From a virus (Duplodnaviria > Caudoviricetes): a DNA stretch of 58,398 nucleotides. How positions within the stretch are numbered: the first letter of the stretch is position 1; every line of letters begins with the position of its first letter. Location of the stretch: positions 1 to 58,398 of the IMG/VR virus record IMGVR_UViG_3300022928_000003, one strand, 5' to 3'. Shown here piece by piece: positions 11,925-54,913 of the stretch. The notes below the pieces were generated by a model. It worked only from the letters and a program-made list of their open reading frames with translations. It was not told where the DNA came from and made no database searches. A program made the position numbers and the translations under genes.

Positions 11925-11987
11925 GTTAATCTCCTTGTCGTGGCTATTGTCGAACTTAATTGTTCGTCAAGGTGATTTTAGTATACA

Positions 11988-12019
11988 TAAAAAAAGGGTG
12001 ACTCGCAAGCCACCCTTTT
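11988..12019 (-). terminator. Rho-independent terminator after the major capsid gene
   Basis: Minus strand AAAAGGGTGGC-TTGCGA-GTCACCCTTTTTTT. Confidence 0.8.
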
Positions 12020-12039
12020 AATAATCGAACAATTGTTCG

Positions 12040-14033: not shown

Positions 14034-14991
14034 TAACTACTCCTTTTGATTTTTCTATTTTAGCTACTTCCTGTGCATACTTTTCTAATGGTATCCTCAT
14101 TTTTTTAGCAAAGGCTACCTGACCAGGTGTTAGCTCAATAGTTTTTTTACCACCCTTTTTTAGAGACCGTCCACTGGACGCAGGAGCTACAGATTGGGTG
14201 TTTTTCTGTCCTCCCTTAAACTTGTGTGGAAATTCAATAGCCATACGTTTACTAACTTCTGAATAATAATCATCAGTTGATGGATCAAATCCTTCTTGAC
14301 CAACTAATTGTTCGTGTATAGCTCTTGCTCCACTTGTCATAATCATATCAGTTCCAAACCAAGAATTGTTATCTAACCATTTTTGTAATTTAGGATCTAA
14401 TTCTTGTTTTTGAGGGGTCTGCCTGACTTGCGAGGTGTTCTGTTCAACATCGCTCTTTTGCGCATTATTTCCAGTTGCTCCCGCTTGCTCAGAACGAGCT
14501 TTTTGGATTCTAAGTCTTTCGTTTTCAATAGCGAGTTTAGCCATGAGGTCACTCGCTTCAGACATTTTTTCAGCATCTCCAGCATCAAAAGCCTCCTTGT
14601 AAAGTTTTTTAGCTTGAGCAGTTTGTGACTCAATTCTATTACCAAATTCTGAAGTATAACCTTGATTTAACTGATTAAGCTGTTGTTTTAACTTTTCATT
14701 TTCATTTTTTTGTTGTTGAGCAAAATTAAAAGCTGCTTCTGCTTCCTCTAATGCTTGCTTACGTTTTGCTGTTAATTGATTAATTCTTTTTTGAACATTA
14801 TCGCTATATGCTTCTATTTCTTCAGAATCTTCAGATTTTTCACGAACAATTGTTCGGTCTTCTTCAACTTTTTTTTCTGTTGAAATTTCATTTTTTTCTT
14901 CAACAACAGGTGTTTCGTCTTCTAATTCATAGACAAACTTTTCTTCCTGTTCTTCTTGTTTTTCTGTTTCGTTATTCATTATGCTCTCCAT
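14026..14991 (-). CDS. Capsid scaffolding protein
   Basis: Acidic coiled coil, VQKRINQLT, W...N.WFG, C-terminal LT..QVAFAKKM.IPLEKYA. Confidence 0.7.
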   Translation of the reverse strand: MESIMNNETEKQEEQEEKFVYELEDETPVVEEKNEISTEKKVEEDRTIVREKSEDSEEIEAYSDNVQKRINQLTAKRKQALEEAEAAFNFAQQQKNENEKLKQQLNQLNQGYTSEFGNRIESQTAQAKKLYKEAFDAGDAEKMSEASDLMAKLAIENERLRIQKARSEQAGATGNNAQKSDVEQNTSQVRQTPQKQELDPKLQKWLDNNSWFGTDMIMTSGARAIHEQLVGQEGFDPSTDDYYSEVSKRMAIEFPHKFKGGQKNTQSVAPASSGRSLKKGGKKTIELTPGQVAFAKKMRIPLEKYAQEVAKIEKSKGVVNG

Positions 14992-17775: not shown

Positions 17776-20185
17776 TTCTTCCTCCTTTCATAGCATTCAT
17801 AGCTGCTATATCTCGTTGAGTTTGTATTCTATCTTGAGCAATTTCTTCTTGTTGCTGAAGACGTTTATTGTCAATCATTGTATCATTTGACTCTTTTTGC
17901 ATTTCCATCTCTGTTTTTTTCTGAAATTGTTCGGCTTTTTGTTGTATTTCAGAACCACGAAGAGCTAATTCTTGTTTTCTTAACGTAACAAGAGGGTCTT
18001 CTTGTGGCGGAGGTGTAAGTGCTTGTGCATATTGCTCTTGTACTTCAGCTGCAATTTCAGCTGCTCTTGAAGCAATTTGATCTGTTATTTGTTTTTGCAT
18101 ATTTGGATCTTGTTGCATCATCATCTGTTGTTCTGGTGGTATTGATGCCATAACTTCCTGTTGTGCAGTCATTTCAGACATCATTGCTATATGCTCGGAT
18201 ATATGACCTTGCAACGTCATAAGTATTGAAGCATTTGATTGTGCCACAGGAGTAGAAAGCATTGCTAAATGAGCAGATATATGTGCTTGATGATTTTGTT
18301 CTGGGAATGCAGTTAATACACCTAATCTCAATGCTTCTTGATTTTCTTTTGCTGGGTTCATGGGCATCGGTTGTGGAGGAGGCTGCAACACTTGGTCTAT
18401 ATTTGTAACACCTAACGCTTCGTACATCTTGCGATAGGCTTGATACATACCATTTTGCCCATGAATTTCTGGATTGCTTTGTGCTAATTGCAATTGTGTT
18501 TGAGCCAAAGCGATACGTTGTGACATTGAAAATATATTAGGGTCTGAAACAGGTAATATATCTATTCGATCATCAAAATCAGCTTGTTTTATTTCTGGTG
18601 GCGCTCCTGGTACTTGATATGGATACATTGGAACACCCATAGAAAACACACGAGCTAACAATTTAAATTCTATCTTTTGTGAGTAATGAAGACGTTTATG
18701 AATAGCTGACATAACCTTCGTGCCACGCTCCATAATAGCCATAGTTGTGCCAACAGGAGCGTTGCCTTGCATCTCACCAACTTTCATGTCAGCCATAGAT
18801 GCAAAACGTCTGCCAGAATCTATTAATGTTCCCATAAGAGAATATAATGTTTGTGATGGTTCTTTGAATGGCAATGGCATAATAGCTTGCCTTAAATCCA
18901 TACCTACCATATCTACATCTCTAAACTCACCAGGATTAAGAGGTGTCTCGTCATCCCTTATTCTAGCTCCTCTAGCTTTAAAACCTGCTGGAAGGTTAGA
19001 TAGTGTGCCAGCATCTATTAGCTGCCTTAGAATGGACGTAGAAGCTCTGGAAAGACCGCCTATAGTATGTGTGAGACCAAAACCATAAAACCCAAGACCA
19101 GGTAGAAACTTATAATGCACAAAATAAGGCACTTTCCTACGGAGCGGATCACTTTCATTGAAATTCCGTTTGATTGATAAGACATCCCCAGTGTCCTCCA
19201 TAATTGTTACGATATAGGGCATCTTCAATCCTGTCGGTTCACCATCAGCTCCAATATCTTCAAATCCTTCAATATCTAAATCTGTGTGAACTTCATAAAC
19301 CATTATCTCTTCATTCTGTGAAGAGCTACTTGCAATACCCTCTATCTCGTTAATTGTATCCTTCACTTCGTTCATAGTGTCTGAGTCAGCGCCAGAACTA
19401 GGAAGGTCTATATTTTTATAAAATCCTGATAATTGTAGTTTTTTAATTTCGTTTTTATCCATGCGAATGCAGTGAGTTATTCTCGTTGCTGTTGCCAAGT
19501 CTGTTGCACTGTAAGGAACAATTAAGTCCTCAGAATGCACAAACTTACTGACAGCTCTTTGCATTGAAGGATCAAAGTAAACTTTTTTAAATGCTGAACC
19601 TACAATCGGAAGATAAAACAACATTTGATCTAATTCAGGATCATATTCTTCCATCTCGTAAGTTATTTGGTAATTCATATAATTTTTAACACGCTCTGCT
19701 TGAGCTGTTACTTCTGGAGTTTCTGCTCCAATAATTGATGTCTTGACAGGTCCTCCAGCAGGTAGCATTTCACGATACGCCTGTGCTTGAAACTGCGTAA
19801 CAGATTCAGCTAATAACGGATGTACTATACCAGACGCTCCCTCGAAAGGCTCTGATCTGTCTTCGTAACTCATACCAAGAAGTTCTAATCCACTTTTGTA
19901 CTGTTCTTCCCAATCACTTCTTGAATTGATATCTTCTTCTATATTTCTTATAATTTCATTAGATATTTCTGATAATACATCTTCATCAATGTGTTCTGCT
20001 AGGTTTGCATCAAACGGAATAGCTATGGGAGCTTCTGTTTCCATCTCCATATCACCAACAATCGCTGATCCATCCTCTAATTCTGTCACACCTTCTACCA
20101 AAGCCTCTGGAGGCAGTTTGACTAAATTAGCTTCCAGTTCTGGAGCGACAGCATCTGCTATGCCATTTATATTTTCAATCGCCAT
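17768..20185 (-). CDS. Portal protein
   Basis: SR.DWE..Y..GL, HPLLAESVTQFQA, GSAFKKVY.D, FLPGLGFYGFG; 805 aa. Confidence 0.85.
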   Translation of the reverse strand: MAIENINGIADAVAPELEANLVKLPPEALVEGVTELEDGSAIVGDMEMETEAPIAIPFDANLAEHIDEDVLSEISNEIIRNIEEDINSRSDWEEQYKSGLELLGMSYEDRSEPFEGASGIVHPLLAESVTQFQAQAYREMLPAGGPVKTSIIGAETPEVTAQAERVKNYMNYQITYEMEEYDPELDQMLFYLPIVGSAFKKVYFDPSMQRAVSKFVHSEDLIVPYSATDLATATRITHCIRMDKNEIKKLQLSGFYKNIDLPSSGADSDTMNEVKDTINEIEGIASSSSQNEEIMVYEVHTDLDIEGFEDIGADGEPTGLKMPYIVTIMEDTGDVLSIKRNFNESDPLRRKVPYFVHYKFLPGLGFYGFGLTHTIGGLSRASTSILRQLIDAGTLSNLPAGFKARGARIRDDETPLNPGEFRDVDMVGMDLRQAIMPLPFKEPSQTLYSLMGTLIDSGRRFASMADMKVGEMQGNAPVGTTMAIMERGTKVMSAIHKRLHYSQKIEFKLLARVFSMGVPMYPYQVPGAPPEIKQADFDDRIDILPVSDPNIFSMSQRIALAQTQLQLAQSNPEIHGQNGMYQAYRKMYEALGVTNIDQVLQPPPQPMPMNPAKENQEALRLGVLTAFPEQNHQAHISAHLAMLSTPVAQSNASILMTLQGHISEHIAMMSEMTAQQEVMASIPPEQQMMMQQDPNMQKQITDQIASRAAEIAAEVQEQYAQALTPPPQEDPLVTLRKQELALRGSEIQQKAEQFQKKTEMEMQKESNDTMIDNKRLQQQEEIAQDRIQTQRDIAAMNAMKGGRSG

Positions 20186-26146: not shown

Positions 26147-26159
26147 AATCAATAACTTA
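26147..26159 (+). promoter_or_regulatory. IHF consensus site
   Basis: AATCAATAACTTA fits WATCAANNNNTTR. Confidence 0.45.
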
Positions 26160-26221
26160 GAACAATTGTTAGATATTGTATATTAACTAACAATTGTTCG
26201 ATGTCATAATAAATTTTAGAC

Positions 26222-29144: not shown

Positions 29145-29165
29145 TTTGACCTCCTGCTGTTAACC

Positions 29166-38920: not shown

Positions 38921-39128
38921 TGCCACCTCCCGACCATGATTTATCTGAGTATTGAAAGTGGATACGAGCAATATATTCTCCGTTGTAAAACTCGTCTACA
39001 TTAGACGATAATTGTATGTTAGATATTATACCAACAACTTCGTCTTCTGACAAATCGCACAATTTTTTATCCCAGCCTATTTCCGAACAAATCCGAGCAA
39101 ACCTCTTTAATGGATGGTTATCTGACAT
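38907..39128 (-). CDS. Hypothetical protein (DUF6511-like)
   Basis: EIGWDKKL.DL...APF. Confidence 0.5.
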   Translation of the reverse strand: MSDNHPLKRFARICSEIGWDKKLCDLSEDEVVGIISNIQLSSNVDEFYNGEYIARIHFQYSDKSWSGGGNAPF

Positions 39129-39364
39129 TCGTCATCCTCCTGAATGTAAAAATGTAAATCAAAGGTTGCTCCAAAATAATGAACAATCGCTTTACCGCTA
39201 ACTACGTTATCAAAATCACTGCAAGTATCTAAAATAGCATTGTTAATATACTCCATGAGTTCATCTTTATTGCAGTCAAGATCGACAGGAACAAACATCT
39301 TGCCTTCTTTTTTGCTTACAGGACGCTCAAAAAATAAAGTATAATCAACTCTGATGCTTGCCAT
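39107..39364 (-). CDS. Hypothetical protein
   Basis: Coupled ORF. Confidence 0.5.
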   Translation of the reverse strand: MASIRVDYTLFFERPVSKKEGKMFVPVDLDCNKDELMEYINNAILDTCSDFDNVVSGKAIVHYFGATFDLHFYIQEDDECQITIH

Positions 39365-39632
39365 CTTTTGCCTCTATAGCTAATGCTGCATACCCGATAA
39401 CATCAATCATATTATCCTCTACCTTTGGATTCTGACTGTTTCTAATTTGTTTAATGCCTATCATTGCTCTATAGACATCATGTATATCAAGAGGCTCTTT
39501 TAATTTTTTTCTTAACAATATGTTCCATATTTCAGCTATGTATGTGTGAGTTTCTGTAGCATCGCCATGAGTTTTAGCTCTAGGTCCGTTTATAATTAAA
39601 TCTACTTTTTTTAGTGCTTCACTTCGGTGCAT
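39345..39632 (-). CDS. DUF6378-like (nucleotide-modification-associated) protein
   Basis: I.GPRAKTHGD....IAEIW...DV..AM...K..R...DNMID.IGYAAL. Confidence 0.65.
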   Translation of the reverse strand: MHRSEALKKVDLIINGPRAKTHGDATETHTYIAEIWNILLRKKLKEPLDIHDVYRAMIGIKQIRNSQNPKVEDNMIDVIGYAALAIEAKDGKHQS

Positions 39633-41298
39633 TTTTTTCTCCTATGTTTATAATTCTTGTATCTATTTGATCTTTATTCCAAACATAATTCAACCAACAA
39701 GCCGCTTTATATTTGTTCCAACTGAAATCTATTGGCTTAACATCAACACCATAACGTCTTAACATCTCTGATTGCTTTGGCGTTACAGCTTCATTTAACC
39801 ATCTTTTACCTTTCTTAGCAGCATCACTATCTTCAATCTTCCTTAGAAAGTCATCAGCAGATGCTATGGCTTGTTCCTTAGTTCCAACACTAACTACCCT
39901 TAACTTGCCCCCTGTGCGCTTTACAAGGGCTATAGATATATCATCTAAGTGTGCAACCATGCCAAAACCATTAAAGCCACTAGCACTCATACAAGCACCA
40001 TTGTTAAACAAGTCAATCCATCTAAACGGTGATCTATCCATAAGATCAACTTCAGTCATTACAAAGTCTTCTAGTGATTCTCGCTCTTCTTTGCCAAACT
40101 CATGTCCACATATAGGACACTCACGAGATGACAATGGTACTTCTGATTGACAATCTGGACATATTTTAACAGGAGCTTCACCTGATCTTTGAGATTCAGC
40201 ACCTTCAAGATTAACACCTTCATCTAATGACCCGTGTGTAAGTACACTTGTGCCAAAATCTAAAACCACACAATCTTTTTTAATGACATCTGGATGCTCC
40301 TCTGGATCTATTGTTCGGAGTCCACGACCAATCATCTGTACCATTGTAGATTTGTATGAACATGGTCTTGTAAGCACAATACAACTAACAGGCGGGGCAT
40401 CAAATCCCTCTGTAAGCACAGCTACATTGACAACAACTTGTATATCTCCATGCTCTAAATCATGTAATATTTGTTTTCTTTGGTCTGCTGGCGTGTCACC
40501 AGTAACAATTTCAGCTCTTACGTTTGATCTACGATACTCATCACATACATCTTGTGCATGAACGATTGTAGAGCAAAACACAACTGTCTTTCTGTCTCCC
40601 GCTTTATCTTTCCATTCATCTACAATTTTTTCGTTAATAGCTCGTTTGTTCATAATCCGTTCAACTTCACTCATATCAAAATCTGATACGGTTCTACGAA
40701 CATTTTGCAAATCATCTGTAACACCTACATCAATGACGTATGTCTTAGGCGGCACAAGAAAACCTTCACGGATAAGTGTTCCTATTTCAATTTGATGCGA
40801 ACAATTATTGAATACAGTCTTTAATCCTTTTTTATCTCCACGATTGGGAGTTGCTGTAAAACCAACTATCTGTACAGAATTGTTCGCTTCTTTGACCCTG
40901 TTAATAATTCTTTGATATGTATCTGCTATTGCATGGTGACTTTCATCAATAACAACCATGTCAACAGGCTTCATGTTATCCAAATTGTTCGGTCTCGAAA
41001 GCGTCTGCACCATGCTAAATATGGTTTCTCCAGACCAATCTTTCTCTGATCCGTCAACTATACTCGTGGATATGTTTGGATTAACACGGGAAAATTTCTG
41101 TGCATTCTGTCGTACAAGCTCATCTCTGTGTTGTATGACTAATACTCTATCGCCTTTTTTATATCTCTTACCTACTAATGCAGACAACATAATAGTTTTA
41201 CCCGCTCCCGTTGGAGCAACAACGATAGTGTTTTTGTGTTTATCAAGAGCGATAGACGCATCGTCTACGGCTACTTGTTGGTACGGTCTAAGTATCAT
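39619..41298 (-). CDS. Superfamily II DExH helicase with zinc ribbon
   Basis: LRPYQ, APTGAGKT, DESHH, TATP, LTEGFD, QMIGRGLR, CPDC..CPIC. Confidence 0.9.
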   Translation of the reverse strand: MILRPYQQVAVDDASIALDKHKNTIVVAPTGAGKTIMLSALVGKRYKKGDRVLVIQHRDELVRQNAQKFSRVNPNISTSIVDGSEKDWSGETIFSMVQTLSRPNNLDNMKPVDMVVIDESHHAIADTYQRIINRVKEANNSVQIVGFTATPNRGDKKGLKTVFNNCSHQIEIGTLIREGFLVPPKTYVIDVGVTDDLQNVRRTVSDFDMSEVERIMNKRAINEKIVDEWKDKAGDRKTVVFCSTIVHAQDVCDEYRRSNVRAEIVTGDTPADQRKQILHDLEHGDIQVVVNVAVLTEGFDAPPVSCIVLTRPCSYKSTMVQMIGRGLRTIDPEEHPDVIKKDCVVLDFGTSVLTHGSLDEGVNLEGAESQRSGEAPVKICPDCQSEVPLSSRECPICGHEFGKEERESLEDFVMTEVDLMDRSPFRWIDLFNNGACMSASGFNGFGMVAHLDDISIALVKRTGGKLRVVSVGTKEQAIASADDFLRKIEDSDAAKKGKRWLNEAVTPKQSEMLRRYGVDVKPIDFSWNKYKAACWLNYVWNKDQIDTRIINIGEKNAPK

Positions 41299-44439: not shown

Positions 44440-47333
44440 GGTGTTTGCCTTGCTGCTATTGCTTGATTTATAGGACTTAGACCTAATAATTGTCCTGTGC
44501 CTGGTGAACTTACGTTAATTGCTCCCAATCCTGTATTAGCTGCGGGTGGAGTTACGTTTATTCCTGTACCTGCTGGCGTTTGATTCTGAACATTTGTTCG
44601 GACTTGATTAGCCGTATTTTTAATTGCAGAAGTAACCCCGTAGTTATCTGCAAGAGCTTCTATTTGATCCGCTCCTTCATTTACGCCTTCTTGAAACATT
44701 TGACCAGGAGCTTGTGACATAAAGTTTCTTATAACTTGTCCTAGTGTCATAGCCCTTTCTGCGTCTGTCTTTGCAGTTCTTACACCATTTTTATATTGTT
44801 TTACTATTTGACTATAATAAGGAGCTGATGTTAAGAACCTGCCCAACACAGTAAACTTTGCTAATTTGCCTAAATTTTGTAGAGGGCTAGCGGCTATATT
44901 AGCAGCTACAAGATCACCACCTTCAGCAGTTCTTGCGTTAAACTTTAATATCTTAGCGAACTCTGTCATATCTTTGCCCATTCTATCACCATAAAGAACA
45001 TTTAATTTATTTCCTTTTGATGCTTCTAACATACGATCAGCAAACTTACCCAATTTTTTACTATCTGTCATAACAGTTTCACCAAAGTCTTTAATAAGAC
45101 TGTTCATAAAATAACCTTGAATTTTCTTTATTGATTCTTCATCATTTTGTGTTCTGAAATAAGTAAGTATGTCATTTATTTCATTTGCTTTTGTAGAATT
45201 GTTCGCTATTAACTCACCAGCTTGTGTTGAATTTAAAGTGCCTTCAGCTAATTTTTTTCTAACATTACTTGCTTGTAAATTACCTAAATTAACTTGTGCA
45301 TTTTTAACACTATTTAACAATCCTCTTAATGTATCACTACCACCTTGATCTACAATATTTTGAATAACAGTGTCATCGATTTTATCTATAGATGTTAATC
45401 TTATTTGATTAGCTAAAGCCTTAATACCATTATATTTATCTGCTCCACCAAATAAAACATCTCCGCTTGTTCCCAAACTATCAATAGCATCAGCAAATGC
45501 TTTACCGCTAAAATCTTTAGGACTCATAGAATCTATACCTGATTTAGCTAAAGCATCTTTAACAAAATTGTTCGATAATTCTTCTCTAAATCTGAGAACA
45601 TCGTTAGGTTTACCAAATTTTTCTAATACTTTTATAGCCCCTTGTAAAAACTGCGGTCTATTTGGTTTAATTAAATCTCTAAATATTTGAGGGTCAACAG
45701 CTAAACGTCTTGCATCCCTATCACCTGTTTTTACAAAGTCTTCTAAATTTTTTAATACTGTATTACCTTGCAATTGTTCGAGTATATCTTTACCTTCTTT
45801 AAAATCAGCTCTTGCTTTTTTTAATTGTTCTCCAGCTTTAGTAAGCATTGCTGCTTCATCAGTAGTTAATTTTGCACCTTGAGCAGTGATTTCTAAATTT
45901 TCACGGCTCATAATATTATCTATGTCGTCTAGAATTGGTTTTAAAACTCTACCTACAGTTGCATCACCAGACATAATTAAATCATTTGTAGATTTTCTGG
46001 CGTTATACAATTGATTAAAAGATGCTTTGTTACCTCTTTGCTTTATTAATGATCTTAATAAACTTAACTGTCCTTTAGCGTCCTCAAAAGACTTGCCAGT
46101 TGCTCCTTTTAAACTATCTAATGCTGTTAAAACTTTTGGCTGCAAATCTTTTACATTAATAAAGTTTTTTGAACCAAGTTGTTCTCCCATAAGATCATCA
46201 ACAGCTTTAAATGTTCTTGTCATGTTTCTGTTAAATTTTTCTTGTGCATTTGTAAAAAGTTCAAATATTTCATTATCTATGTCAGGATTTCTAGTCATAC
46301 CAGGACTTGCAAACGCATTAGCTGTATCTTCAAATTGTTTTAACACAGCTTTTCTTGCTTCAGCTTCTGCTTTAAGTAAAGCAGCATTATCTTCTTTTAA
46401 ACCTCGTAATAAAGCCTCACCAGCTTCGTCTGCTGTGCTAGACCCGCTTATTTGAGTAAACTCATTTATTTTTTTAGACATAACTTCATTGTTTTGTTTT
46501 AAACGTTCAGATGTCTTAAATATTTTTTCTCCAATGCCTTGCGCTCTTGCAATAACTGATGGCGCTCTGATGGCTGATAGCGTAGGCAATATGCCCATAT
46601 CAATTGACTTAGCTGCTGTTTCAAGTTCCTCAGACGTTAATTCTTTACCAGCTTGCAATGATTTTTTACCAACACCAAATGCCTTACCAAGTAATCCGAA
46701 CAATCCATCTCCAACAAAGCCTATGGCTGCTTCAGTAGCTATGTCTTTAGCTATATCTCCCGCTGATTGTTTTGACACACCAGCTCCAGCTTCAACAATT
46801 TCTTCTACTCCTTGACCTGTTCCAGCTCCTATTCCAGCACCTATAGCTGCTCCAAGAACAGGAATAGGTATAGCGACTTGCCCTGCTATAGCTCCACCAA
46901 CTGCACCTATAAGCTCTGGTGCTATACCTGCAAGATCAGCTAAATCATAACGACTAAATCCATCTTCATCTATGAGTATATTTTTGTCTGTTTCTTGTCC
47001 AAACTTAGCTGCACCTTCAGGTGTAAGAGCCAATCTACCACGCTTGTCACGCACATATTCGTCTTCGCCTATATCAAATTTAGCTAATATAGCTGCTTCT
47101 TCATCTCTATTTTCGGCTGCTGACAAGGCAGATCGTAAAGAAGCACTCTTAATTCCTGTGTCAGTATCAAACAATTGTTCGTTAATTAAGTCTTCTTTTT
47201 TATCAACAGAAACACCTTGTTCTTGTCCTCTAAGATATTCAGTAATTTTTAATTGTTCTGAAAATGTTGGTTTTTCGCCTTTAATCTTAAAGCCGACTTC
47301 TTTACCACCAACCTCCATTTTTAAAACGCCCAT
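44436..47333 (-). CDS. Large internal virion/ejection protein
   Basis: 965 aa, helical, Gly/Ala-rich hydrophobic segment; podovirus ejection-module position. Confidence 0.6.
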   Translation of the reverse strand: MGVLKMEVGGKEVGFKIKGEKPTFSEQLKITEYLRGQEQGVSVDKKEDLINEQLFDTDTGIKSASLRSALSAAENRDEEAAILAKFDIGEDEYVRDKRGRLALTPEGAAKFGQETDKNILIDEDGFSRYDLADLAGIAPELIGAVGGAIAGQVAIPIPVLGAAIGAGIGAGTGQGVEEIVEAGAGVSKQSAGDIAKDIATEAAIGFVGDGLFGLLGKAFGVGKKSLQAGKELTSEELETAAKSIDMGILPTLSAIRAPSVIARAQGIGEKIFKTSERLKQNNEVMSKKINEFTQISGSSTADEAGEALLRGLKEDNAALLKAEAEARKAVLKQFEDTANAFASPGMTRNPDIDNEIFELFTNAQEKFNRNMTRTFKAVDDLMGEQLGSKNFINVKDLQPKVLTALDSLKGATGKSFEDAKGQLSLLRSLIKQRGNKASFNQLYNARKSTNDLIMSGDATVGRVLKPILDDIDNIMSRENLEITAQGAKLTTDEAAMLTKAGEQLKKARADFKEGKDILEQLQGNTVLKNLEDFVKTGDRDARRLAVDPQIFRDLIKPNRPQFLQGAIKVLEKFGKPNDVLRFREELSNNFVKDALAKSGIDSMSPKDFSGKAFADAIDSLGTSGDVLFGGADKYNGIKALANQIRLTSIDKIDDTVIQNIVDQGGSDTLRGLLNSVKNAQVNLGNLQASNVRKKLAEGTLNSTQAGELIANNSTKANEINDILTYFRTQNDEESIKKIQGYFMNSLIKDFGETVMTDSKKLGKFADRMLEASKGNKLNVLYGDRMGKDMTEFAKILKFNARTAEGGDLVAANIAASPLQNLGKLAKFTVLGRFLTSAPYYSQIVKQYKNGVRTAKTDAERAMTLGQVIRNFMSQAPGQMFQEGVNEGADQIEALADNYGVTSAIKNTANQVRTNVQNQTPAGTGINVTPPAANTGLGAINVSSPGTGQLLGLSPINQAIAARQTP

Positions 47334-47337
47334 TTGA

Positions 47338-49314
47338 TTATCCTGTTACATCTATTATTTCAATTCCACCAGATTCACCTATTGAAATTCTGTTTTGATA
47401 TTGTTTTGGAGTCGATTTTTTTAAAACATCTAACAATATTTCTTGAGTTCTTGTATAATTATCATCATTAGTGTGAAATCTTCTATCGTTTAATTGGTCA
47501 AACAAAGATTTAACTCTATTCATAGGAACAGCAAACATTTTCTTCAATTCGTTTAATCTCATTATTCTTTCATTTGGATTAGTTGCTAAATCAATTCTTC
47601 CAACTTGTTTTTCTAAATTTTTAAAGTCTACATTAGAAATACCATTTCCTGTTTCTTGACTTAAAAATCTTTTAAATTGAGCAAGTAATCTATCTTGAAC
47701 AGCTTTTGCTCCAGCCTCTTTAGAGATACCTTTCATCACAACTTTGTCTCCGTTAGCATCTACATATGTTTGATCTTCAAACAACTCTTCACCTTTTACA
47801 CCTAACGTAGTTAATAGACCTTTTGCTCTTTCTGTTAAAAGATAAGCTGCTGGTGATCCCGCTTGAGCTATTTCTTTATTTACGTTTAATAAATAATCTA
47901 TCGAATCGTTTGCTTGTAATAAATTTCCATATCCATCTGCTAAACCTCTAGCTGACGATGTTGGGTTTAATATTTTTTCATTTCCGTTTTGGTCAAATCC
48001 AAATTGAACTTCTACACCTTTTAATCCTTGAACTTGTTGACTAATGCTTTTCTTTAAATTAAGTTTTCCATCTTTTATAGCTTTTGCTCTAGCATTTATC
48101 ATAGCGACATCAAGATCATTTTTGTCTTTCATTGCTTGTATTATATATTTTCCTTGTTGATCTCTTGTTTCTTTACCTAATGCGTTGAGAGCTGTTCTTT
48201 TTTCTTTCAAAAAAGCTGCTTTTGCAACTGTGTCAGCTTTAATTTCTTGTAAAGCAAACTTACCAGCAGCAACTTGACCAGCTCTAGCCTCTTGTCTAGC
48301 TTTCTCAAACAATGGCAGAGCTTTTTGACCCGCTTCTCCTGCTGCTCCTATGATATTAGATAAGTTAAAACCTTTACCTGCTCTGTTTTGCATCAGAGAC
48401 AAGCCTAAAGACATTAGAGCCAGTTTGTTATCAGGCTCTCCCGATACATCTATACCCGTAGCTTTAGCAAAATCTTCTTTATATTGTTCTATTGTTTTAG
48501 CACCAGAGGGTTTTTTATCATCTCCATATATAGAATTAAAATCTTCCATAGCACTTTTAAATAAACTTTGTTGTGCTTGTGCTAATTTTTCTGCTTCAGA
48601 TAAAACAGGCTCTCTCATTTCAGGTGTAATGACTTCCATCTCAGCACCCTCTTGAGACATGTCTCCTAATTGAGTGTTTTCTATTATCTTTTGTTGCATT
48701 TCTGCAATACGAGCATCCGCCTCTGGATCTGAAAATTGTCCTTTTGGATCTATAGTTTCTTCTTCACCGCTAACAACTTGATCTCCAGATTTATCAGCTC
48801 CAAAAGAATCTACTCCTATGTTTGCTTTGTCTGCTTTATTAGAAAGTTTTGCAAGTCTTTTTGCAACTTCATCTCTTGTCTCTAATGATTGACCTATAAC
48901 TGGTTCAGAAGCTATTTTGCTTTTAGGTAATCCTAATTCCATACCTGAAGTATCTCTAGCAATTCTTTCAGCAATTTTTTTACGACCAGTTTCAGTTAAT
49001 GTTGGATCAAAAGCAGCTTCTGTAATTGTTGAAACTCCTGCATCTATTGGAGATATAATTGATTTATAAACATCAGCAAGAGATGCAGGAATATTTAAAG
49101 CACCTTCAGCTAGACCTAATCCAGCAGCACCAATTGGTGTTTCTCCCTTACCCAAATCAAATCTTCTAAATCCAAGACCGCTAAACATATCAGTTTTGTC
49201 ATCATACGATTTATCAAGATTAGTTAAAAACCTATTTCCAATTGACCTACCAGGCACTAGTCGATCTATAGCTTTTTGTCTATATGCTTGTAATGCGTCT
49301 TCTATACCAGCCAT
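47338..49314 (-). CDS. Internal virion/ejection protein
   Basis: 658 aa, helical, LMSLGLSLM segment. Confidence 0.55.
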   Translation of the reverse strand: MAGIEDALQAYRQKAIDRLVPGRSIGNRFLTNLDKSYDDKTDMFSGLGFRRFDLGKGETPIGAAGLGLAEGALNIPASLADVYKSIISPIDAGVSTITEAAFDPTLTETGRKKIAERIARDTSGMELGLPKSKIASEPVIGQSLETRDEVAKRLAKLSNKADKANIGVDSFGADKSGDQVVSGEEETIDPKGQFSDPEADARIAEMQQKIIENTQLGDMSQEGAEMEVITPEMREPVLSEAEKLAQAQQSLFKSAMEDFNSIYGDDKKPSGAKTIEQYKEDFAKATGIDVSGEPDNKLALMSLGLSLMQNRAGKGFNLSNIIGAAGEAGQKALPLFEKARQEARAGQVAAGKFALQEIKADTVAKAAFLKEKRTALNALGKETRDQQGKYIIQAMKDKNDLDVAMINARAKAIKDGKLNLKKSISQQVQGLKGVEVQFGFDQNGNEKILNPTSSARGLADGYGNLLQANDSIDYLLNVNKEIAQAGSPAAYLLTERAKGLLTTLGVKGEELFEDQTYVDANGDKVVMKGISKEAGAKAVQDRLLAQFKRFLSQETGNGISNVDFKNLEKQVGRIDLATNPNERIMRLNELKKMFAVPMNRVKSLFDQLNDRRFHTNDDNYTRTQEILLDVLKKSTPKQYQNRISIGESGGIEIIDVTG

Positions 49315-49323
49315 GCCTAACCC

Positions 49324-50328
49324 TTATGAGCTTTTTTGACCACCACCAAAAGGTGCGATCTGTGACAATGTTGTATAAGCACCTATACCTTGTAAAAATG
49401 GATTGGCAGAAGGTGTTGTTGCTTGTGTAAACGTAGATGGAATACTTGCACTTGGCATTCCTTGTAACAAATTCTGACCTATTTGCAATCTTGTAAAAGG
49501 CTCTTGAGCTGCTTGCATTGCATTTTGTCTTTGCGCATCTAATTGAGCTTGTTGTTGCGCTTGTCTCATTGCGCCTAACTGACTTAACTGTGATACATCT
49601 GCTTGACCTAATGCCTGTTGCAAACGCCCTATATCTGATGTTGTACCAGCTAAAGTTCCAAATGCTTGCCCAAGACCGCCAGCTAGTCTTCCTGACTCTA
49701 GTTGAGCTTTTAAACCCGCTCCAGCAGCGTCTTGTGATGCCTTTAATGCTTGACCATAACCAGAAGATAACAATCTTGCTAATGTATCTGCTTTTGTGTT
49801 TTGTAAATTACGTTCTGTTTCTGCTCTTTGAACACCTTGTCTTGATCCACCAAAAGCACCTGCTTGTATAGCTTGAGCATCTGCACCAGCTCTTCTCATA
49901 TCAGCTTGTCTATCAAGCTGTTCCATTGTTCGATCAATGACTTGTTGTTGAAATGGGTCTTGAAACTTTGATATATCTCCAGTTATTTGAGAGACTAAAG
50001 GATCAGTGAATTTAGATGCTTGACCTGGCTGTAACATTCCTAGACCACCTGTCAAAGCCTGTTGAGCAGCTAAACCTTGTTGTGAAGCTCCTTCAATAAA
50101 AGGCTTGTAAGCTCCAGCCATTCCTTCGCCTAAATCTATTGCGTCTTCACGAAGTGGATCCATACCAGCTATTTGATAATCTGGTAAACCTAAAGGAGAA
50201 TCAAGTAATCCTTTAGTTTTTTGTGTGTCACCATCAAACTCACCAAAGCCTGTTTGCAATAATCTTTTTTGCAAACCCTCAAGAAAAGGAGGTAATCGTT
50301 GTATATTTTCATAGGTTTGAGTTGCCAT
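49324..50328 (-). CDS. Internal virion (DNA-pilot-like) protein
   Basis: Q/A/G-rich; PFQQQVI, AGAFGGSRQGV motifs. Confidence 0.6.
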   Translation of the reverse strand: MATQTYENIQRLPPFLEGLQKRLLQTGFGEFDGDTQKTKGLLDSPLGLPDYQIAGMDPLREDAIDLGEGMAGAYKPFIEGASQQGLAAQQALTGGLGMLQPGQASKFTDPLVSQITGDISKFQDPFQQQVIDRTMEQLDRQADMRRAGADAQAIQAGAFGGSRQGVQRAETERNLQNTKADTLARLLSSGYGQALKASQDAAGAGLKAQLESGRLAGGLGQAFGTLAGTTSDIGRLQQALGQADVSQLSQLGAMRQAQQQAQLDAQRQNAMQAAQEPFTRLQIGQNLLQGMPSASIPSTFTQATTPSANPFLQGIGAYTTLSQIAPFGGGQKSS

Positions 50329-51158
50329 TATGCTCTAGCCTCCAATTTATCCATCATATTATAGGCTCTTTGGATACCTTTTCTTTGATTACCATCACCT
50401 AAACCTTTTACTGCATCTTTTGTTAATACAAATTCACCCGCCATAAGCATAGCAGGAACATCATCTTTACGTCCAGAACCTTCGCTTGGATCTATACCAC
50501 CGTTTCTACGAGGAAAACCCATAGGCCCTCCCATATTAGCATATGTTATGCCACCCAATCTTCCGCCAGGTCCTCCATATCCAAAAGGTCTTCTCTCAAA
50601 TTCTGATCTCATATCGTCTTCATCTTCACCGCCAGCTAATAATTGCATAAGCAATCCAGCAGTTAATCCTTGTCCTAAACCTGATCCTAAAAATTTACCT
50701 GTAAGACTATCATCACCTATACCCAACATATTTAAAAAACTACCAGAGTTACCACCACCTGTGGCTACTTTTTTAATGCCTTCAGTTGCTGCGTCAGTTG
50801 CTGTTTTTTCAGACAATCTTTTAACTGCTTCGTTAGCACCTCTATTATCAAGAAAAGCGCCGCTACCTTGACCCATAGTACCAGCTTTTGAAGCTCCAAC
50901 TTGTGTTGCGGTTGATCCAGCTTCTGCGCCACCACCAAACATTGCACCTAAACCACCTGACAACAATCCAGCCATGACAGCATCTTTTGTTTTACCACCA
51001 CCAAGTTTACTTGCTAAAGCTCCTGTCAATGCTCTTGATATAAATGGATTGACAGCAGAAGTACCGAACAATTGTCCTAAACCAGCCCCAACAGAAGGCC
51101 CTGCAAACGCACTTATTGCAATTGGTGCTATTTTTTTAAGTAATTTACCTAAACTCAT
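50328..51158 (-). CDS. Gly-rich internal virion protein
   Basis: C-terminal G.G..DDVPAML..GEFV.TKDAV motif. Confidence 0.6.
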   Translation of the reverse strand: MSLGKLLKKIAPIAISAFAGPSVGAGLGQLFGTSAVNPFISRALTGALASKLGGGKTKDAVMAGLLSGGLGAMFGGGAEAGSTATQVGASKAGTMGQGSGAFLDNRGANEAVKRLSEKTATDAATEGIKKVATGGGNSGSFLNMLGIGDDSLTGKFLGSGLGQGLTAGLLMQLLAGGEDEDDMRSEFERRPFGYGGPGGRLGGITYANMGGPMGFPRRNGGIDPSEGSGRKDDVPAMLMAGEFVLTKDAVKGLGDGNQRKGIQRAYNMMDKLEARA

Positions 51159-51195
51159 ATCAATACATTACCTTATTTTAGATATTTGTTCAATC

Positions 51196-51585
51196 CTATA
51201 TCTGTGTTATCGCACTTGTGGTAATTCTAGTCTTAATTAATTCTTGTATACTAGCTACAACAAGAAGTCTGTTTGCAGTTCCTGCTTGTACTTTTACTAC
51301 ATCTCCTGGTTTCAAAATTAAATCTTTTGTTAACAATTCTTCTGTAGCGTGACCCGCAACGGTTTTTTTAAATATCGTAAATGTATTACTAGAAGAATCT
51401 GTTATAGTAACCGTTATAGTATCACCATTATTGCTATCATCATGCACTAAAATAGAATTTATAACAGAGGCATTAGATTCAGCACCGCTAGGAGCTGTAT
51501 ATAAAACAGTAGCGTCAGTTGTTGTTAAATCAACTTTTGAATTTGTTAAACCTTGTATATATTGAGGAATACTAGTTACTAACAT
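51196..51585 (-). CDS. Virion protein (paralog of 6436..6774)
   Basis: LYTAPS, LILKPGDVVKV. Confidence 0.55.
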   Translation of the reverse strand: MLVTSIPQYIQGLTNSKVDLTTTDATVLYTAPSGAESNASVINSILVHDDSNNGDTITVTITDSSSNTFTIFKKTVAGHATEELLTKDLILKPGDVVKVQAGTANRLLVVASIQELIKTRITTSAITQI

Positions 51586-53720
51586 TAACGTCTACCATCT
51601 TGTCTTATATTAGCCCTTGGTGTACCAAGTTTATATTTAGTGCCTAAAGAAGTTGAATCAATCCGCAAAGCAAAAGATCTACCTCGTAGACGATAATTTA
51701 ATTTTTCTGTGAATTGTTCTACTGGACTAGTTGCAGTTCTTTGTGCATTACCAGATTGTGATTGCAGAAAGTTACCTCCAGAAAAATTCTTAGCCTTAAC
51801 AGTAAAATCTACATCGGGATTAACGCTAGTTGATCCATTAAAAGTAATATCTGGTATAATCTCGCTTAAAAAAACGTACTTTTCTCCCTCACCTATATCT
51901 ACAGGAGCAGATTCAATAAAAGATGTCATTGCAGAGCCATCATCATCGTAACCTACTTCGTGGTTATATAAATATTGACTACCAGTGGCTTGAGGTAAAG
52001 TTCTAATCCCTCTGTCAAGCCATGCTTGACGAGCCATTGTTCCATAGTACCATACTTTTTCTGAATAATTATAAGCAACATATTTATCTATTTCAGTACC
52101 AGCAGATGATGGATAAAACCACAAAATCTCACTAAATTCTGAATTAATACCTGCATGAACTTTATCACGTTCTTCAAAGTTAAAATCTAAAAAAACTTTA
52201 TCTTTTACACTACATGGTAGTTGTATTGTTTGACCACCGCTGTATATATAAAAAGTATCAACACCCATCCAATAGACAGCATCCTCTACCGCAATAGCAG
52301 AAGATGGACTCATAATGGTTATATTCTTTGATAGTTCTTGCAGACCAAAAGTAAATGGAGGTCCTATAAATTTCATAGCGTGTAATGTTTTGTTTGTAAA
52401 AACAAGCAACTGTTGTTTTGTTTCAACAGCTTGAACAAAGGTCGATCCCCCACCAAGTCTTAAATCACCAGCAGTATTCGTTGCAGATGGGAACCAATCC
52501 AGAGGATTTTCTTGAGATGAAAATCTAATTAACAATGGATCTTGCACTCCATCACCTTGAGTTGATGTGTCACTAGCTCCTAGACCATCACACCCAAAAG
52601 CAATAACATGTCTATCTTGGTCGGATACAAGAACTTGTTTAGCCCTTTGTGGAACACTTCTCGGTGTTCCAGGTATAGTGCTTAATTCTACAGCTCTACC
52701 ACTTAAACCATTTGTTTTATCCCAGTAATAAATAGCTCCATCTCTTGGGTTAAGTATTAAATCTTCTCCAAAGTTATCATGTGACCATAACCTAATCTGT
52801 GCGCCAGGAACCGTAATCGATGCTGCACTACCCCATCCTACAAAGTCATCTGTAGAAAGAGTATTACCTGTAGCTAATCTAACCAATGATCCATTGTCAT
52901 GTGTTGCAGCCGTTGTGCCACTATGTCCACGGGTCACTGTCATTGTGTTATCATCCGCAGAAGCCGTAATAAGCATTAACTCGTTATCAATTAAAACAAC
53001 ATCGCCTTCTGTGGTCATGCCTGTCTCATCAACAACATCAACGCCTGTTTCACTTGCATCGAGAGCTTCATTTAATGTTGTGGACAATGCACTACTAGTT
53101 GTTCCACTCCATTGTCCAGCACCCCAACCCGTACCACCAACTGTCACATCAAGACCTGTGTTTAACTGATATGATCCAACAACACTACCACCACCATTTC
53201 CGCTATCAGAGGCATTGGCTGCAATGGCAGAAGTAATTGTGTACGAGTTAGAGCTTACAATGGATGTGATTTGATATTCTTTATTAAGAACGGCAGCTGT
53301 TATATTACCACCTAAACTCACAGCACCAGAAAAAGTTACAAAATCATTTTCGTTAGCACCATGTGCTGGATCTAAAACAGTTATTGTTGTTGAACCATTC
53401 GTGGCTGAAAAAGTTATATCTCCTGCACTGGTTGTGGCTCTAATAGGCGTAATATCATTGAAAGATTGTCCTTCTTCAATGTAATATTTTAATTGCGTTC
53501 CTATACCTAAAAAATCAGAACCATCAAGAGCAACCCAATTATGCAATCGTCTGGCAGAACCTTGAAATGTTTCTGTAGTATGTTTTGCCCAACCACCTAT
53601 CTTTTCTGGAAAACCAAATCTAAATCTTACTTTATCACCATCAACATATCCACCTTCATTACTTTCAGATGTTATGTCTGACACAACTCCTGGTTTAAAT
53701 TTTAGTTTTGTCATAGGCAT
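51585..53720 (-). CDS. Tail tube/nozzle (P22 gp10-like DNA-stabilisation) protein
   Basis: D.DKVRFR.G.PEKIGGW, IRFSSQE, YWMG, EILWFYPS, R.RGR...RI. Confidence 0.7.
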   Translation of the reverse strand: MPMTKLKFKPGVVSDITSESNEGGYVDGDKVRFRFGFPEKIGGWAKHTTETFQGSARRLHNWVALDGSDFLGIGTQLKYYIEEGQSFNDITPIRATTSAGDITFSATNGSTTITVLDPAHGANENDFVTFSGAVSLGGNITAAVLNKEYQITSIVSSNSYTITSAIAANASDSGNGGGSVVGSYQLNTGLDVTVGGTGWGAGQWSGTTSSALSTTLNEALDASETGVDVVDETGMTTEGDVVLIDNELMLITASADDNTMTVTRGHSGTTAATHDNGSLVRLATGNTLSTDDFVGWGSAASITVPGAQIRLWSHDNFGEDLILNPRDGAIYYWDKTNGLSGRAVELSTIPGTPRSVPQRAKQVLVSDQDRHVIAFGCDGLGASDTSTQGDGVQDPLLIRFSSQENPLDWFPSATNTAGDLRLGGGSTFVQAVETKQQLLVFTNKTLHAMKFIGPPFTFGLQELSKNITIMSPSSAIAVEDAVYWMGVDTFYIYSGGQTIQLPCSVKDKVFLDFNFEERDKVHAGINSEFSEILWFYPSSAGTEIDKYVAYNYSEKVWYYGTMARQAWLDRGIRTLPQATGSQYLYNHEVGYDDDGSAMTSFIESAPVDIGEGEKYVFLSEIIPDITFNGSTSVNPDVDFTVKAKNFSGGNFLQSQSGNAQRTATSPVEQFTEKLNYRLRGRSFALRIDSTSLGTKYKLGTPRANIRQDGRR

Positions 53721-54913
53721 TATAAAGCACTCGCAGATAAGGTTCCTGTATACTCTGCCACACTAACGCCTCCAGTGCCATCGTTAACTGGTTTTAATGC
53801 GTAAGGTTGACCACTTCCGTTTGACCCAGATATAGTACCCGTTACGCTAAATGAACCATCTGTTGAATCTCTGTCTACAGTATTTGTAGCACCAGCAGAT
53901 ACTGTTGCACTAAATGGATCACTACCAGTTAAAGTACAAGATATTGCTAAATTGTTCGTAAATATAAATCGTCTACCTGCTGTTGGGCCATTTATGTCTA
54001 TGTTTTTAATTGCGTTAAAAGCACCTCTGCCCTCGTTCATCGCAAAAACTAATTTATCATTATTTACATCTACAAAAGCATAAAAATCAAAAGTGCCTGA
54101 GTTACCATTATTAACACCTTGAATTACATTATTCCATTTCATAAATCTATATGTCTTACTATTTATAGTGTGTGTTGTATTCACACTTGGTCGATTTGCA
54201 GTTCCACCATCAAAAGTACCTGTACCTCCAGTTCCACCCGAAGTTGATGGGCCCATAATACGACCACTTATTTTAGTGCCATCTTCCATAAAAGCATGAG
54301 TGAAAGACATACCAAAATCAGATCTATCTAAATTTGTCATAGCCGTTCCACCAGCGATAGTTGTATAACCCGTTGTGTAGTATGTTCCATGAACTAAAAA
54401 ACCTTCATTAGAATTACTTGAAGGATTTTTAACAGTTGTGTTGCCATCACCAAAAGGACTAAAACCAGGAGGAGCACCCAAAGATGTTCCACTTACATCA
54501 ACATCAACATCTAATAATAGAGTATCAAAAGTATGTGTATCTGTCTGTACAACAACTGTAGAGTTATCCGCCTCACTTATCGTGGTTGTACCAGAGTTTC
54601 CAGTAGAACTTTGTGATGATGTAAATGTTTTTAACGTGGACTGCACATTACCACTTCCTTTAAGTTCTAGTGTTGTACTAGAGTTTGTTGTCAGTGGCGA
54701 TCCACTGGAATTAATTATGTTATTACCATTTGTATCAAGTATTATTTTTTTGTGTGCAGAATCATCATCTAATGTCAAATTACCAGAAATGTTAGTTGTT
54801 AACCTAAAAAACTGTATGGGTAATTTACTTTTAGCTGTTCCAGCTTTGTCGTTTAAATTACCTGCCGAACTTACTTCAGTAAATCCTAAACCTGATATTA
54901 ATGGTATACTCAT
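53720..54913 (-). CDS. Tail-associated beta-rich protein
   Basis: S/T/G-rich 397-aa ORF in the tail module. Confidence 0.5.
   Translation of the reverse strand: MSIPLISGLGFTEVSSAGNLNDKAGTAKSKLPIQFFRLTTNISGNLTLDDDSAHKKIILDTNGNNIINSSGSPLTTNSSTTLELKGSGNVQSTLKTFTSSQSSTGNSGTTTISEADNSTVVVQTDTHTFDTLLLDVDVDVSGTSLGAPPGFSPFGDGNTTVKNPSSNSNEGFLVHGTYYTTGYTTIAGGTAMTNLDRSDFGMSFTHAFMEDGTKISGRIMGPSTSGGTGGTGTFDGGTANRPSVNTTHTINSKTYRFMKWNNVIQGVNNGNSGTFDFYAFVDVNNDKLVFAMNEGRGAFNAIKNIDINGPTAGRRFIFTNNLAISCTLTGSDPFSATVSAGATNTVDRDSTDGSFSVTGTISGSNGSGQPYALKPVNDGTGGVSVAEYTGTLSASAL

Follow-up and report, generated by a model that had tools for sequence, protein, structure and literature searches.

An exact nine-base DNA word dispersed through a phage genome and recurring in its relatives

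The stretch analysed here, IMG/VR record IMGVR_UViG_3300022928_000003 over its full 58,398 bp (the window), is a complete viral record of an uncultured aquatic phage of the Caudoviricetes with terminal repeats present and a guanine-plus-cytosine (GC) content of ~37%. All of its long open reading frames (ORFs) lie on the - strand. In transcription order they begin with tail-fibre, virion and ejection genes (58 to 44 kb), which are followed by a replication and recombination module (43 to 35 kb) and, in order, by a Mom-like gene, small early genes and terS. After terS come small gene cassettes (30.3 to 27.5 kb), an amidoligase gene, a regulatory region and the gene of an XRE-type helix-turn-helix (HTH) protein, then TerL, portal and head genes, and last the tail genes (12 to 0 kb). 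Dispersed over this genome is a 9-base word, CGAACAATT, which we analysed together with the 14-bp palindrome CGAACAATTGTTCG, in which two inverted copies of the word share a central AATT.

An exact word in genes and spacers of the window

CGAACAATT is the most over-represented 9-mer of the window. It has 47 exact matches on both strands against 0.53 expected, and no more than 3 were found in any of 100 dinucleotide shuffles; since three perfect palindromes count twice, the 47 matches correspond to 44 sites. Furthermore, the palindrome CGAACAATTGTTCG with at most two mismatches occurs 23 times against 0.17 expected, with 3 perfect copies and 20 others. A first-pass annotation, made from the letters of the window, had noted roughly 40 copies by eye. 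The enrichment proved stronger than it had stated. Its list was short of the copies at 11958, 26192, 27227, 38625 and 47173, and its list of palindromes, correct in itself, lacked those with two mismatches at 26159 and 44587. Every position that it did give holds to within 1 base, including the perfect 14-mers at 12026, 14843 and 29215 and the near-perfect copies and half-sites. Its remark that none was noticed in the tail-fibre genes likewise agrees with our maps, in which no copy lies at 1-11.9 kb, 18-26 kb or 54-58.4 kb.

The word is exact. Each of the 27 single-mismatch variants of CGAACAATT occurs at most 6 times, near background. When mismatches of sites with an AATT centre were divided between the two halves, 34 sites fell into the partitions (0,1) to (0,4), one into (1,1), none into (1,2) and six into (2,2). 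The second half is moreover bimodal: at least 3 of its 5 positions match the palindrome in 24 of the 47 copies, against a background of ~8%, and the remainder is background-like. Mismatches confined almost entirely to one half and a bimodal second half identify the exact 9-mer as the unit under selection, with the palindrome made up of two such units that overlap in inverted orientation.

Copies inside genes carry much of this signal. Of the ORFs in the window, 73 were chosen as genes, and these hold 25 matches, compared with 1.87 (standard deviation 1.26, maximum 6 of 300) when the proteins were kept and synonymous codons permuted, and with 0.48 when codon order was shuffled. The first-pass annotation had described the word as written even into coding sequence and had proposed a codon-preserving shuffle as a check, together with a count outside the dense 26-32 kb region; the excess is confirmed by the former, and by our tally 21 of the 25 coding matches fall outside 26-32 kb. 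Coding copies occur in each of the three frames and in either orientation, and the peptides that they encode (EQL/EQF, NN-, RTI, ELFG, IVR, NCS) are unrelated. The signal thus resides in the DNA, and a protein motif as its cause is ruled out.

We also determined saturation, defined as the share of peptide positions able to spell the word synonymously that do spell it. Saturation was 16/28 for CGAACAATT and 9/13 for AATTGTTCG, whereas 58 composition-matched control words reached 3.1%. By region, 19 of 23 compatible positions were filled within 12-42 kb and 6 of 18 elsewhere. The 16:9 ratio of the two orientations in the genes of the window tracks the 28:13 ratio of compatible positions, and we therefore attribute this orientation bias to coding constraints. 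The positions of the main copies and of the two candidate reader genes are collected in Table 1.

Table 1. Copies of the word and candidate reader genes in the window
Feature	Position	Strand	Remarks
Coding copy, bare 9-mer	14306..14314	-	Exact match
Coding copy, portal gene	17925..17933	-	Exact match
Eleven coding copies, replication region	34719..41000	both orientations	34719, 35040, 35604, 36079, 36848, 37805, 38625, 40798, 40878, 40983 and a near-palindrome at 34714
Six coding copies, virion/ejection genes	45197..53958		45197, 45566, 45772, 47173, 51065, 53950
Perfect palindrome	12026..12039		Directly after the stop codon of the major head gene, before a terminator
Perfect palindrome	14843..14856		Within the gene at 14026-14991
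Copy CGAACAATTAAGTTCG	11958..11973	-	Inner stem of the Rfam Mu-gpT-DE match
Two imperfect palindromes	26159..26200		20-30 nt past the amidoligase terminator; palindrome there in only 3/6 genomes
Cassette zone	27749..29303		Near-palindromes at 27749, 28460, 28500, 29167, 29215; stop-codon words at 27817, 28566, 29274
Array, six copies	29878..30240	-	All read AATTGTTCG(G) on the coding strand; spacing 53-83 bp
Copies in and between small early genes upstream of terS	31001..32482		31001, 31282, 31339, 31721, 31849, 32474
terS (Terminase_2), candidate reader	30275..30802	-	HTH stretch near-invariant; the array starts just after the stop codon
XRE-type HTH protein, 128 aa	25330..25716	-	Conserved in 5/5 relatives; weak candidate reader

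Other words are over-represented in the window as well: ACACCACAGCATC-like, AATACTACAGG-like and GGTGGTGG-like words occur in 9-19 copies and probably derive from repeated peptide units of tail-fibre and virion genes.

Recurrence of the word in relatives

A TerL scan of viral contigs returned at least 595 related stretches, and in the 80 TerL-anchored loci that were kept the word occurs 274 times in 816 kb, recurring down to ~75% TerL identity. Five longer relative records, fetched in full (G001-G005; GC 34-51%), hold 26, 35, 17, 5 and 14 copies, compared with 0-1 of the reversed word, and together with the window they form a pooled set of 144 matches. De novo ranking of words recovered the same core in each relative, in the clade-specific flavours AGCGAACAA and ACCCGAACA, with GTACAATTGTAC or GCACAATTGTGC as further flavours alongside the GAAC form; GTAC and GCAC occur as half-site variants. 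The N4 centre varies in three loci (L144, L164 and L176), with half-sites and spacing fixed.

The first-pass annotation had also pointed to conservation in related phages as a test of the word. Counts and the word itself are indeed clade-wide, whereas individual positions turn over: coding positions are kept in close relatives and lost beyond ~85% nucleotide identity, and counts and saturation persist. The copy in the portal gene, for example, is kept where aligned segments are 88-90% identical and altered at 67-83%, and the palindrome after the major head gene is retained in L136 and L155 and lost in other relatives. At or near the position orthologous to the 14843 palindrome, relatives carry GAAC-N4-GTTC with AAAT or AGAT as the centre and encode a different peptide. 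Flanks of coding half-sites are without conservation (50 sites in six genomes). Since compatible positions are saturated while positions turn over between relatives, these data support strong selection on the number of copies and not on their position. CGAACAATT is written into the DNA of this phage and its relatives almost wherever the proteins allow.

The cultured phages closest to the window are HTVC023P-type pelagiphages and two related isolates, with TerL identities of 56-61%; at the DNA level, no match to the window was found in the phage collection. The word is absent from HTVC027P, and the fetched parts of four cultured relatives contain no word of comparable prominence. Several genes share this distribution, being present in 5/5 word-bearing relatives and unmatched in the fetched parts of the same four cultured phages: the whole replication/recombination module, the terS type and the XRE gene, and furthermore the amidoligase, a GGACT-type protein, several virion, ejection and lysis proteins and two small ORFs. 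The module (35946-43818) encodes a DUF1064/Holliday-junction-resolvase-like protein, Sak4, a ResIII/SNF2-type helicase with a zinc ribbon, a Cas4-like exonuclease, a Toprim plus RepA-like primase-helicase and a DUF669-like protein, the last being a lead only. Two of its proteins were compared with a protein atlas, which gave the DUF669 lead for the 202-aa protein (rank 22, score 0.92), a weak DUF7173 match for the 145-aa protein and no lead to a DNA reader for either. In cultured HTVC023P-type relatives, a primase, helicase and DNA polymerase A module stands in place of the module of the window.

Other neighbouring genes may act in DNA or metabolite modification. The Mom-like DNA-modification gene (35104-35946; Pfam Mom, E = 1e-21) adjoins a phrog_3704 'ferredoxin' gene (34002-34643); the former has no match in any genome compared, and the latter has weak matches only, in G005 and three cultured phages. 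The Mom-like gene was considered as a partner of the word and rejected as window-specific. The amidoligase gene and a gamma-glutamyl cyclotransferase-like gene (26269-27474 and 27825-28343) are kept in 5/5 relatives, and for all four genes such a modification function is possible. tRNA genes were not found in the window.

Arrays, cassettes and terminators outside genes

Copies inside and outside genes differ in form. In the pooled six genomes, near-palindromes make up 52 of the 68 matches outside ORFs, and bare 9-mers make up 50 of the 76 matches within them. In the window, non-coding copies are concentrated at 27.5-30.3 kb, where two kinds of arrangement occur, an array behind terS and a series of small gene cassettes.

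The array occupies a non-coding stretch of ~390 nt (29880-30270, - strand) that begins directly behind the terS stop codon and ends at a terminator near 29810-29850. This stretch has a GC content of 0.56 compared to ~0.37 for the genome, and its coding strand contains TCGG 12 times against CCGA once, as well as 19 GGA triplets. Its folding is somewhat more stable than that of shuffles (z = -2.6), and a search against Rfam gave no family matching the arrays and nothing credible. Equivalent arrays follow terS in the relatives inspected.

This arrangement bears on two explanations. According to the first, the word is a packaging signal: the terS HTH would bind the arrays behind its gene as the pac region, and the dispersed copies as secondary sites that help the terminase to find or hold phage DNA. 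pac sites lie in or beside terS genes, and repeated short boxes adjoining terS are a feature that the word shares with terS boxes in pac regions. In the window, as in those relatives that were inspected, the first array begins at the terS stop codon. This terS type (of the Terminase_2 family) co-occurs with the word, and the HTH stretch of terS, like the word core and in contrast to XRE, shows almost no variation across the clade. However, pac regions are local, and we know of no case of a terS box written through a coding genome; dispersed pac-like sites have no known benefit and could, by our reasoning, cause wasteful cuts. Furthermore, spacings of 50-117 bp in the arrays are unfit for a single terS ring, and the terS HTH stretches of the window and G001 are identical, yet flank base and polarity differ between them. 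We consider a packaging role of this kind quite unlikely.

In the second explanation, the arrays would be iterons of a replication origin and the dispersed copies loading or priming sites for the Toprim/RepA-like primase-helicase. Units of the same orientation are indeed arrayed in non-coding DNA, the unit is monomer-sized, a density of ~1 site per 1.3 kb is within the range of Okazaki-fragment spacing, and the primase-helicase is present in 5/5 relatives and unmatched in cultured relatives, none of which shows the word. Against this, primase sites are normally trinucleotides, the spacing of the units is irregular and both orientations are used in the window. The primase-helicase itself is T7 gp4-like (Toprim plus AAA_25, with a match to RSF1010 RepA) and not an origin binder of the P4-alpha type; a P4-alpha-like origin binder was considered separately and is unsupported. 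A replication role thus appears highly improbable.

Each cassette consists of a sigma-70-like promoter, a small gene, a stop codon overlapped by the word, an intrinsic terminator and one or two near-palindromes. The promoters (TTGACA-N17-TATATT) are near-consensus, share a conserved spacer with the core GCAATCATT and lie at ~29710, 28989 and 28351. We take the cassettes at 27500-30300 to resemble the promoter-plus-stem-loop cassettes of T4-type phages. The cassettes have promoters of their own and the word occurs in both orientations although the genes are one-stranded, and the motif was therefore rejected as a promoter. Cassette boundaries share repeats of 23-37 nt that are spaced 707-711 bp apart although the genes differ, and the cassette zone is hypervariable among relatives, with homology often breaking at copies of the word.

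These breaks, and the boundary repeats ~710 bp apart, are what would be expected if the word were a by-product of a selfish or recombinational process, such as a repetitive extragenic palindromic (REP)-like or miniature inverted-repeat transposable element (MITE)-like repeat or a microhomology at cassette junctions, with no reader selected by the phage. A bacterial metagenome-assembled genome (MAG), G006 (L268, L287, L299, L314, L342), also contains 31 copies of GGTCGAACAATTGTTCGACC, a 20-mer that includes the palindrome. This 20-mer sits at the centre of a ~75-bp repeat with conserved flanks, unlike the phage copies; the repeat of G006 and G007 (L282) lies in the gap after the 3' end of a gene in 3/6 loci inspected, and among relatives of G006, 2 of the 40 sampled hold 2 copies each. 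We judge the repeat to be a copy-and-paste element, apparently REP/MITE-like, that may share the palindrome by chance. In contrast to the repeat, the coding copies of the phages are bare 9-bp words without conserved flanks; alignment with orthologues gives no sign of their having been inserted, and they occupy 57-69% of compatible positions, a pattern that copy-and-paste spread is unable to produce. An origin as a by-product is accordingly extremely unlikely.

Terminators are a further preferred context. Of 60 non-ORF sites in the six genomes, 15 follow a terminator-like T-run at a distance of at most 60 nt, compared to 3.6 expected. In addition, a match to the Mu-gpT-DE RNA (RF03012; 50.9 bits, gathering score 49) lies 68 nt past the major head gene (11922-11972, - strand), and its inner stem is here replaced by the motif (CGAAC...GUUCG); in L148, L149 and L155, paired changes occur on both sides of this stem. 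One may therefore ask if the word acts in RNA, with the palindromes as small 3'-end hairpins and AAUUGUUCG in arrays and 3' untranslated regions pairing with CGAACAAUU in mRNA as a network of seeds and targets. The post-terminator enrichment, the changing Mu-gpT-DE stem and the folding of the array are in line with such a network, and so is the 7-mer core in G001, which lies on the coding strand in ORFs (17:1) and on the template strand outside them (17:7). A weak hint comes from RNA libraries, in which contigs span the dense zone in 3/4 runs and one contig joins the 3' end of terS and the array, although DNA carry-over into these libraries is possible. These RNA and DNA runs are assembled contigs, which are blind to ends, and uncovered parts of 22-42 kb in them constitute no evidence. 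By contrast, coding copies in the window and G002 saturate both orientations equally despite transcription of only one strand, the hairpin is disrupted in hybrid sites such as AGTACAATTGTTCT, and the arrays match no Rfam family. Taken together, we regard an RNA-level function as very unlikely.

Two side observations concern the same spacers. Runs of 8-9 G on the + strand (C on the coding strand) occur at 28491, 29198 and 30143, and in RNA-library contigs the run length is off by one base from the window at each of them. HTVC027P (L206) carries ACCTGATCC/GGATCAGGT seven times against 0.18 expected; in the window this word is part of a terminator hairpin (29247-29264), and this type of terminator may be common to the wider family even without the 9-mer.

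Upstream of the XRE/TerL operon, the regulatory region (~25960-26070, - strand) is conserved in six genomes (the window and G001-G005) and contains, in order, a CCTCAAACGACCCCCA-like box, an A/T-rich tract (AAAAAAAATTTTATAAAAAAA) and a TTGAC/TTGCx-N17-TATAAx promoter. A 72-aa ORF at 25934-26152 is probably spurious and not a gene.

Candidate readers and meaning of the word

Our preferred reading, to which we give a probability of about 40%, is that a single sequence-specific DNA reader recognises these dispersed sites, which are selected for their number; each of its subunits would read one 9-mer, and overlapping units would give the palindromes. A reader of double-stranded DNA would recognise CGAACAATT, and the clade would be under strong selection to carry as many copies as it can. 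One subunit would be bound by each 9-mer and two by each palindrome, and the sites would act by their number: they would either titrate the reader, as a sink, in the course of genome replication or cover phage DNA like a coat or mark. They are probably such a sink or mark and not classical promoter operators.

The palindrome itself offers a concrete candidate for this reader, a host LexA-type repressor, because it has the exact sequence of an SOS box of the Gram-positive type. It shares with that box (GAAC-N4-GTTC, the Cheo box) the 14-bp architecture CGAAC-N4-GTTCG and an identical 14-mer: CGAACAATTGTTCG is the M. tuberculosis dnaE2 SOS box, described in Table 1 of one study as the 'perfect palindrome' for LexA binding kinetics (PMC8607333), and stands among the LexA sites listed in another (PMC2724278). 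Two further papers give the LexA consensus as CGAACRnRYGTTYC for Firmicutes and Actinobacteria and as RGTACnnnDGTWCB for cyanobacteria, with natural boxes such as AGTACGATTGTTCT (PMC2248561, PMC3091678). The sites of the window fit the former and the AGTACAATTGTTCT sites of L197 and L201 the latter. More generally, the GAAC and GTAC half-sites of relatives, with their GTTC partner, match the published consensus, and the centre varies in some relatives. The GCAC half-site form presumably resembles a Fibrobacter-type box, for which a literature search for the consensus gave nothing. A decoy that titrates a host protein, one of the functions that the first-pass annotation had considered, has thereby gained a definite candidate, while the binder was not found.

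The word nevertheless differs from LexA boxes in several respects. Other phages carry one or few LexA boxes at lytic promoters, whereas here ~44 sites occur per 58 kb and about half of them are isolated half-sites in genes. Sites of the window have a fixed AATT centre, one half that is always perfect and almost no degeneracy, and sites of the word do not overlap recognisable promoters.

A number of results weigh against a set of reader-bound sites of this kind. The word is far sharper than usual sets of operators, with at most 6 copies of any variant against 47 exact ones, and isolated half-sites, about half of all copies, are expected to be poorly bound by a LexA-type dimer. Palindromes lie at least 100 bp upstream of the strong cassette promoters and do not overlap them, and a supposed operator inside a promoter at 26207-26180 was dropped, with the conserved promoter ~200 bp downstream and a palindrome at that place in only 3/6 genomes. 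Strand polarity points in the same direction. In G001 and G004, coding copies fill 13 of 28 compatible positions in one orientation and 0 of 17 in the other over the same regions (Fisher p = 5.8e-4), and in the dense zone of 17 non-redundant genomes, which also holds 21 perfect palindromes, the perfect 9-mer is one-stranded at 64:23 in imperfect palindromes and at 49:16 in half-sites; a symmetric dimer site does not predict polarity. As for an XRE reader, the recognition helix of this protein varies (SHRMW, SLRTW, SERGY, SHRML) while the word is constant, and L143 and L144 have identical XRE and terS helices and differ in the flavour of the word.

Because of this partial polarity in some clades, we keep as the main rival a Chi-like polar signal for a translocating helicase-nuclease, which could be the SNF2/ResIII, Cas4-like and Sak4 proteins of the module or the host's RecBCD, AddAB or AdnAB. 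In this case, the word would label phage DNA as self, stop degradation that starts at DNA ends and set off recombination-dependent replication. Palindromes would serve as compact signals in both directions, and the array behind terS, with its copies on one strand, would guard the end made by packaging. Such a signal accords with the polarity, with an exact word in which mismatches are not tolerated, with an asymmetric 9-mer and not a palindrome as the unit, and with conservation of number but not of position. It also accords with the co-occurrence of the word and a recombination module unmatched in four cultured relatives, among which HTVC027P is without the word and the other three are without a comparable one. 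Of the 73 ORFs, 52 were scanned with Pfam and/or PHROGs, and among these 52 neither a DNA polymerase nor an integrase was detected, of which the missing polymerase fits a reliance on recombination and host enzymes. On the other hand, both orientations are about equally saturated in the window and G002, known Chi words have 5-8 nt, saturation drops away from the dense zone (19/23 against 6/18), and the variation among GAAC, GTAC and GCAC together with N4 follows the half-site logic of a dimer. Nor did any of the very few host genomes tested, which do not amount to a systematic survey, prove enriched: G008 and G009 hold 4 and 7 copies, and G010, a 1.3-Mb Actinomycetota MAG, was rejected as a word-bearing host, since its 42 copies (control, 11) rise to 730 (control, 305) once one mismatch is allowed, the exact word being only ~1.6x its one-mismatch neighbours. 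We therefore judge a Chi-like signal unlikely.

A related proposal is that the word is a phage-owned 'self' signature, read by the SNF2-type helicase, Cas4-like nuclease or Sak4 of the clade or by a terminase tracking DNA, which to us seems rather improbable. If true, it would account for exactness, coding saturation, fast turnover of positions and partial polarity; phage DNA would be spared, recombined or packaged, DNA lacking the word would not, and this would be the first virus-owned word system of the Chi or uptake-sequence kind.

Comparison with other described families gave partial likeness in each case. Chi words, DNA uptake sequences (DUS) and uptake signal sequences (USS) belong to cellular genomes and are recognised there by RecBCD/AddAB or competence receptors, whereas the word here is that of a phage clade. 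Shared with them are an exact short word at ~1 per kb in all frames and on both strands, inverted pairs near terminators, a number that is kept while positions turn over and an absence from modules that were likely acquired recently (tail fibres). The sites of ParB (parS), MatP (matS), Noc (NBS) and SlmA (SBS) are palindromes of 13-16 bp, and the likeness lies in palindromic sites, some of them genic, that are concentrated in one domain (here 19/23 within 12-42 kb); in contrast to these, the selected unit here is the half-site and the density is far higher, and no homologue of their readers was detected among the ORFs scanned. From REP/MITE-like repeats, the word is set apart by the 50 coding half-sites without conserved flanks, flanks of that kind being present in the G006 element. 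The stoperators of Cluster A mycobacteriophages, read by a monomeric repressor of the L5 gp71 type, share with the word more than 20 copies of a tightly conserved asymmetric sequence. Stoperators are short words spread genome-wide and apparently read singly, some of them at stop codons or short intergenic gaps, and are placed in promoters and short intergenic spaces in an orientation that follows transcription (PMC9283540). Here, in contrast, 25 of the 47 matches are coding, the window uses both orientations, unlike the polar G001 and G004, and units fuse into palindromes. The word system behaves somewhat like stoperators, LexA boxes and Chi or uptake words, yet lacks at least one defining feature in every family that was testable. 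The literature surveyed holds no description of such a system, and the exact 14-mer appears there in two papers only, each time in the context of mycobacterial LexA-regulated sites; likewise, the main paper devoted to uncultivated phages of the HTVC023P type makes, in its main text, no relevant mention of a motif, palindrome, promoter, LexA or intergenic repeat.

The genes of the window bear on the choice of reader for the dispersed sites. The first-pass annotation had thought of parS/matS-like marking, which finds no counterpart in the genes, since no ParB, MatP or Noc-like gene is present among the ORFs scanned; these also contain no integrase and no L5-type two-domain immunity repressor, the sole repressor-like protein being the XRE-type HTH protein of 128 aa. 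A LexA-like gene was not found in the window. The XRE protein, which had been named as a possible binder, is disfavoured by its varying recognition helix, and a search for covariation of XRE with the word gave no clean relation. The terS HTH stretch, in contrast, hardly varies, as is true of the word core, and the array is always found behind terS. A slowly evolving reader, for which a host protein, terS or a core enzyme are candidates, fits the constant word better than the fast-evolving XRE. Besides host LexA, the reader of our preferred explanation could thus be a phage protein, namely the terS HTH or a member of the clade-specific replication/recombination module. As to the broader idea of dispersed binding sites that mark DNA, with which the first-pass annotation had begun, a DNA-level signal, selection on number and clade-wide occurrence bear it out, whereas sharpness and polarity are unlike an ordinary set of symmetric sites.

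An attempt to assign a host by way of MAGs was rejected, as the matches were phage contigs binned into unrelated phyla and archaea. Contigs with close relatives of the major head protein (L210-L252; 52-86% identity) are binned into MAGs labelled Maricaulis, Marinimicrobia, Dehalococcoidia, Verrucomicrobia, Nitrosopumilales, Saccharibacteria and others; most likely these are free-phage contigs swept into bins, whose labels are no guide to the host. DNA runs labelled as salt-marsh, estuary and freshwater metagenomes contain 46-99% of the sampled words, and with at least 595 TerL-related stretches this phage family is common in aquatic metagenomes.

Altogether, the word system is real and clade-wide and does not fully fit any described system. 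A word that overrides codon choice at ~60% of possible positions points to strong, continuing selection beyond current phage biology, and the system now lends itself to direct testing, given a defined word, its single-base mutants and a short list of candidates. With host LexA as the reader, these apparently lytic phages would be tied into the DNA-damage response of their host, or would manipulate it, to an extent without previous description; with a phage machine as the reader, the word would constitute a virus-owned system of self-marking.

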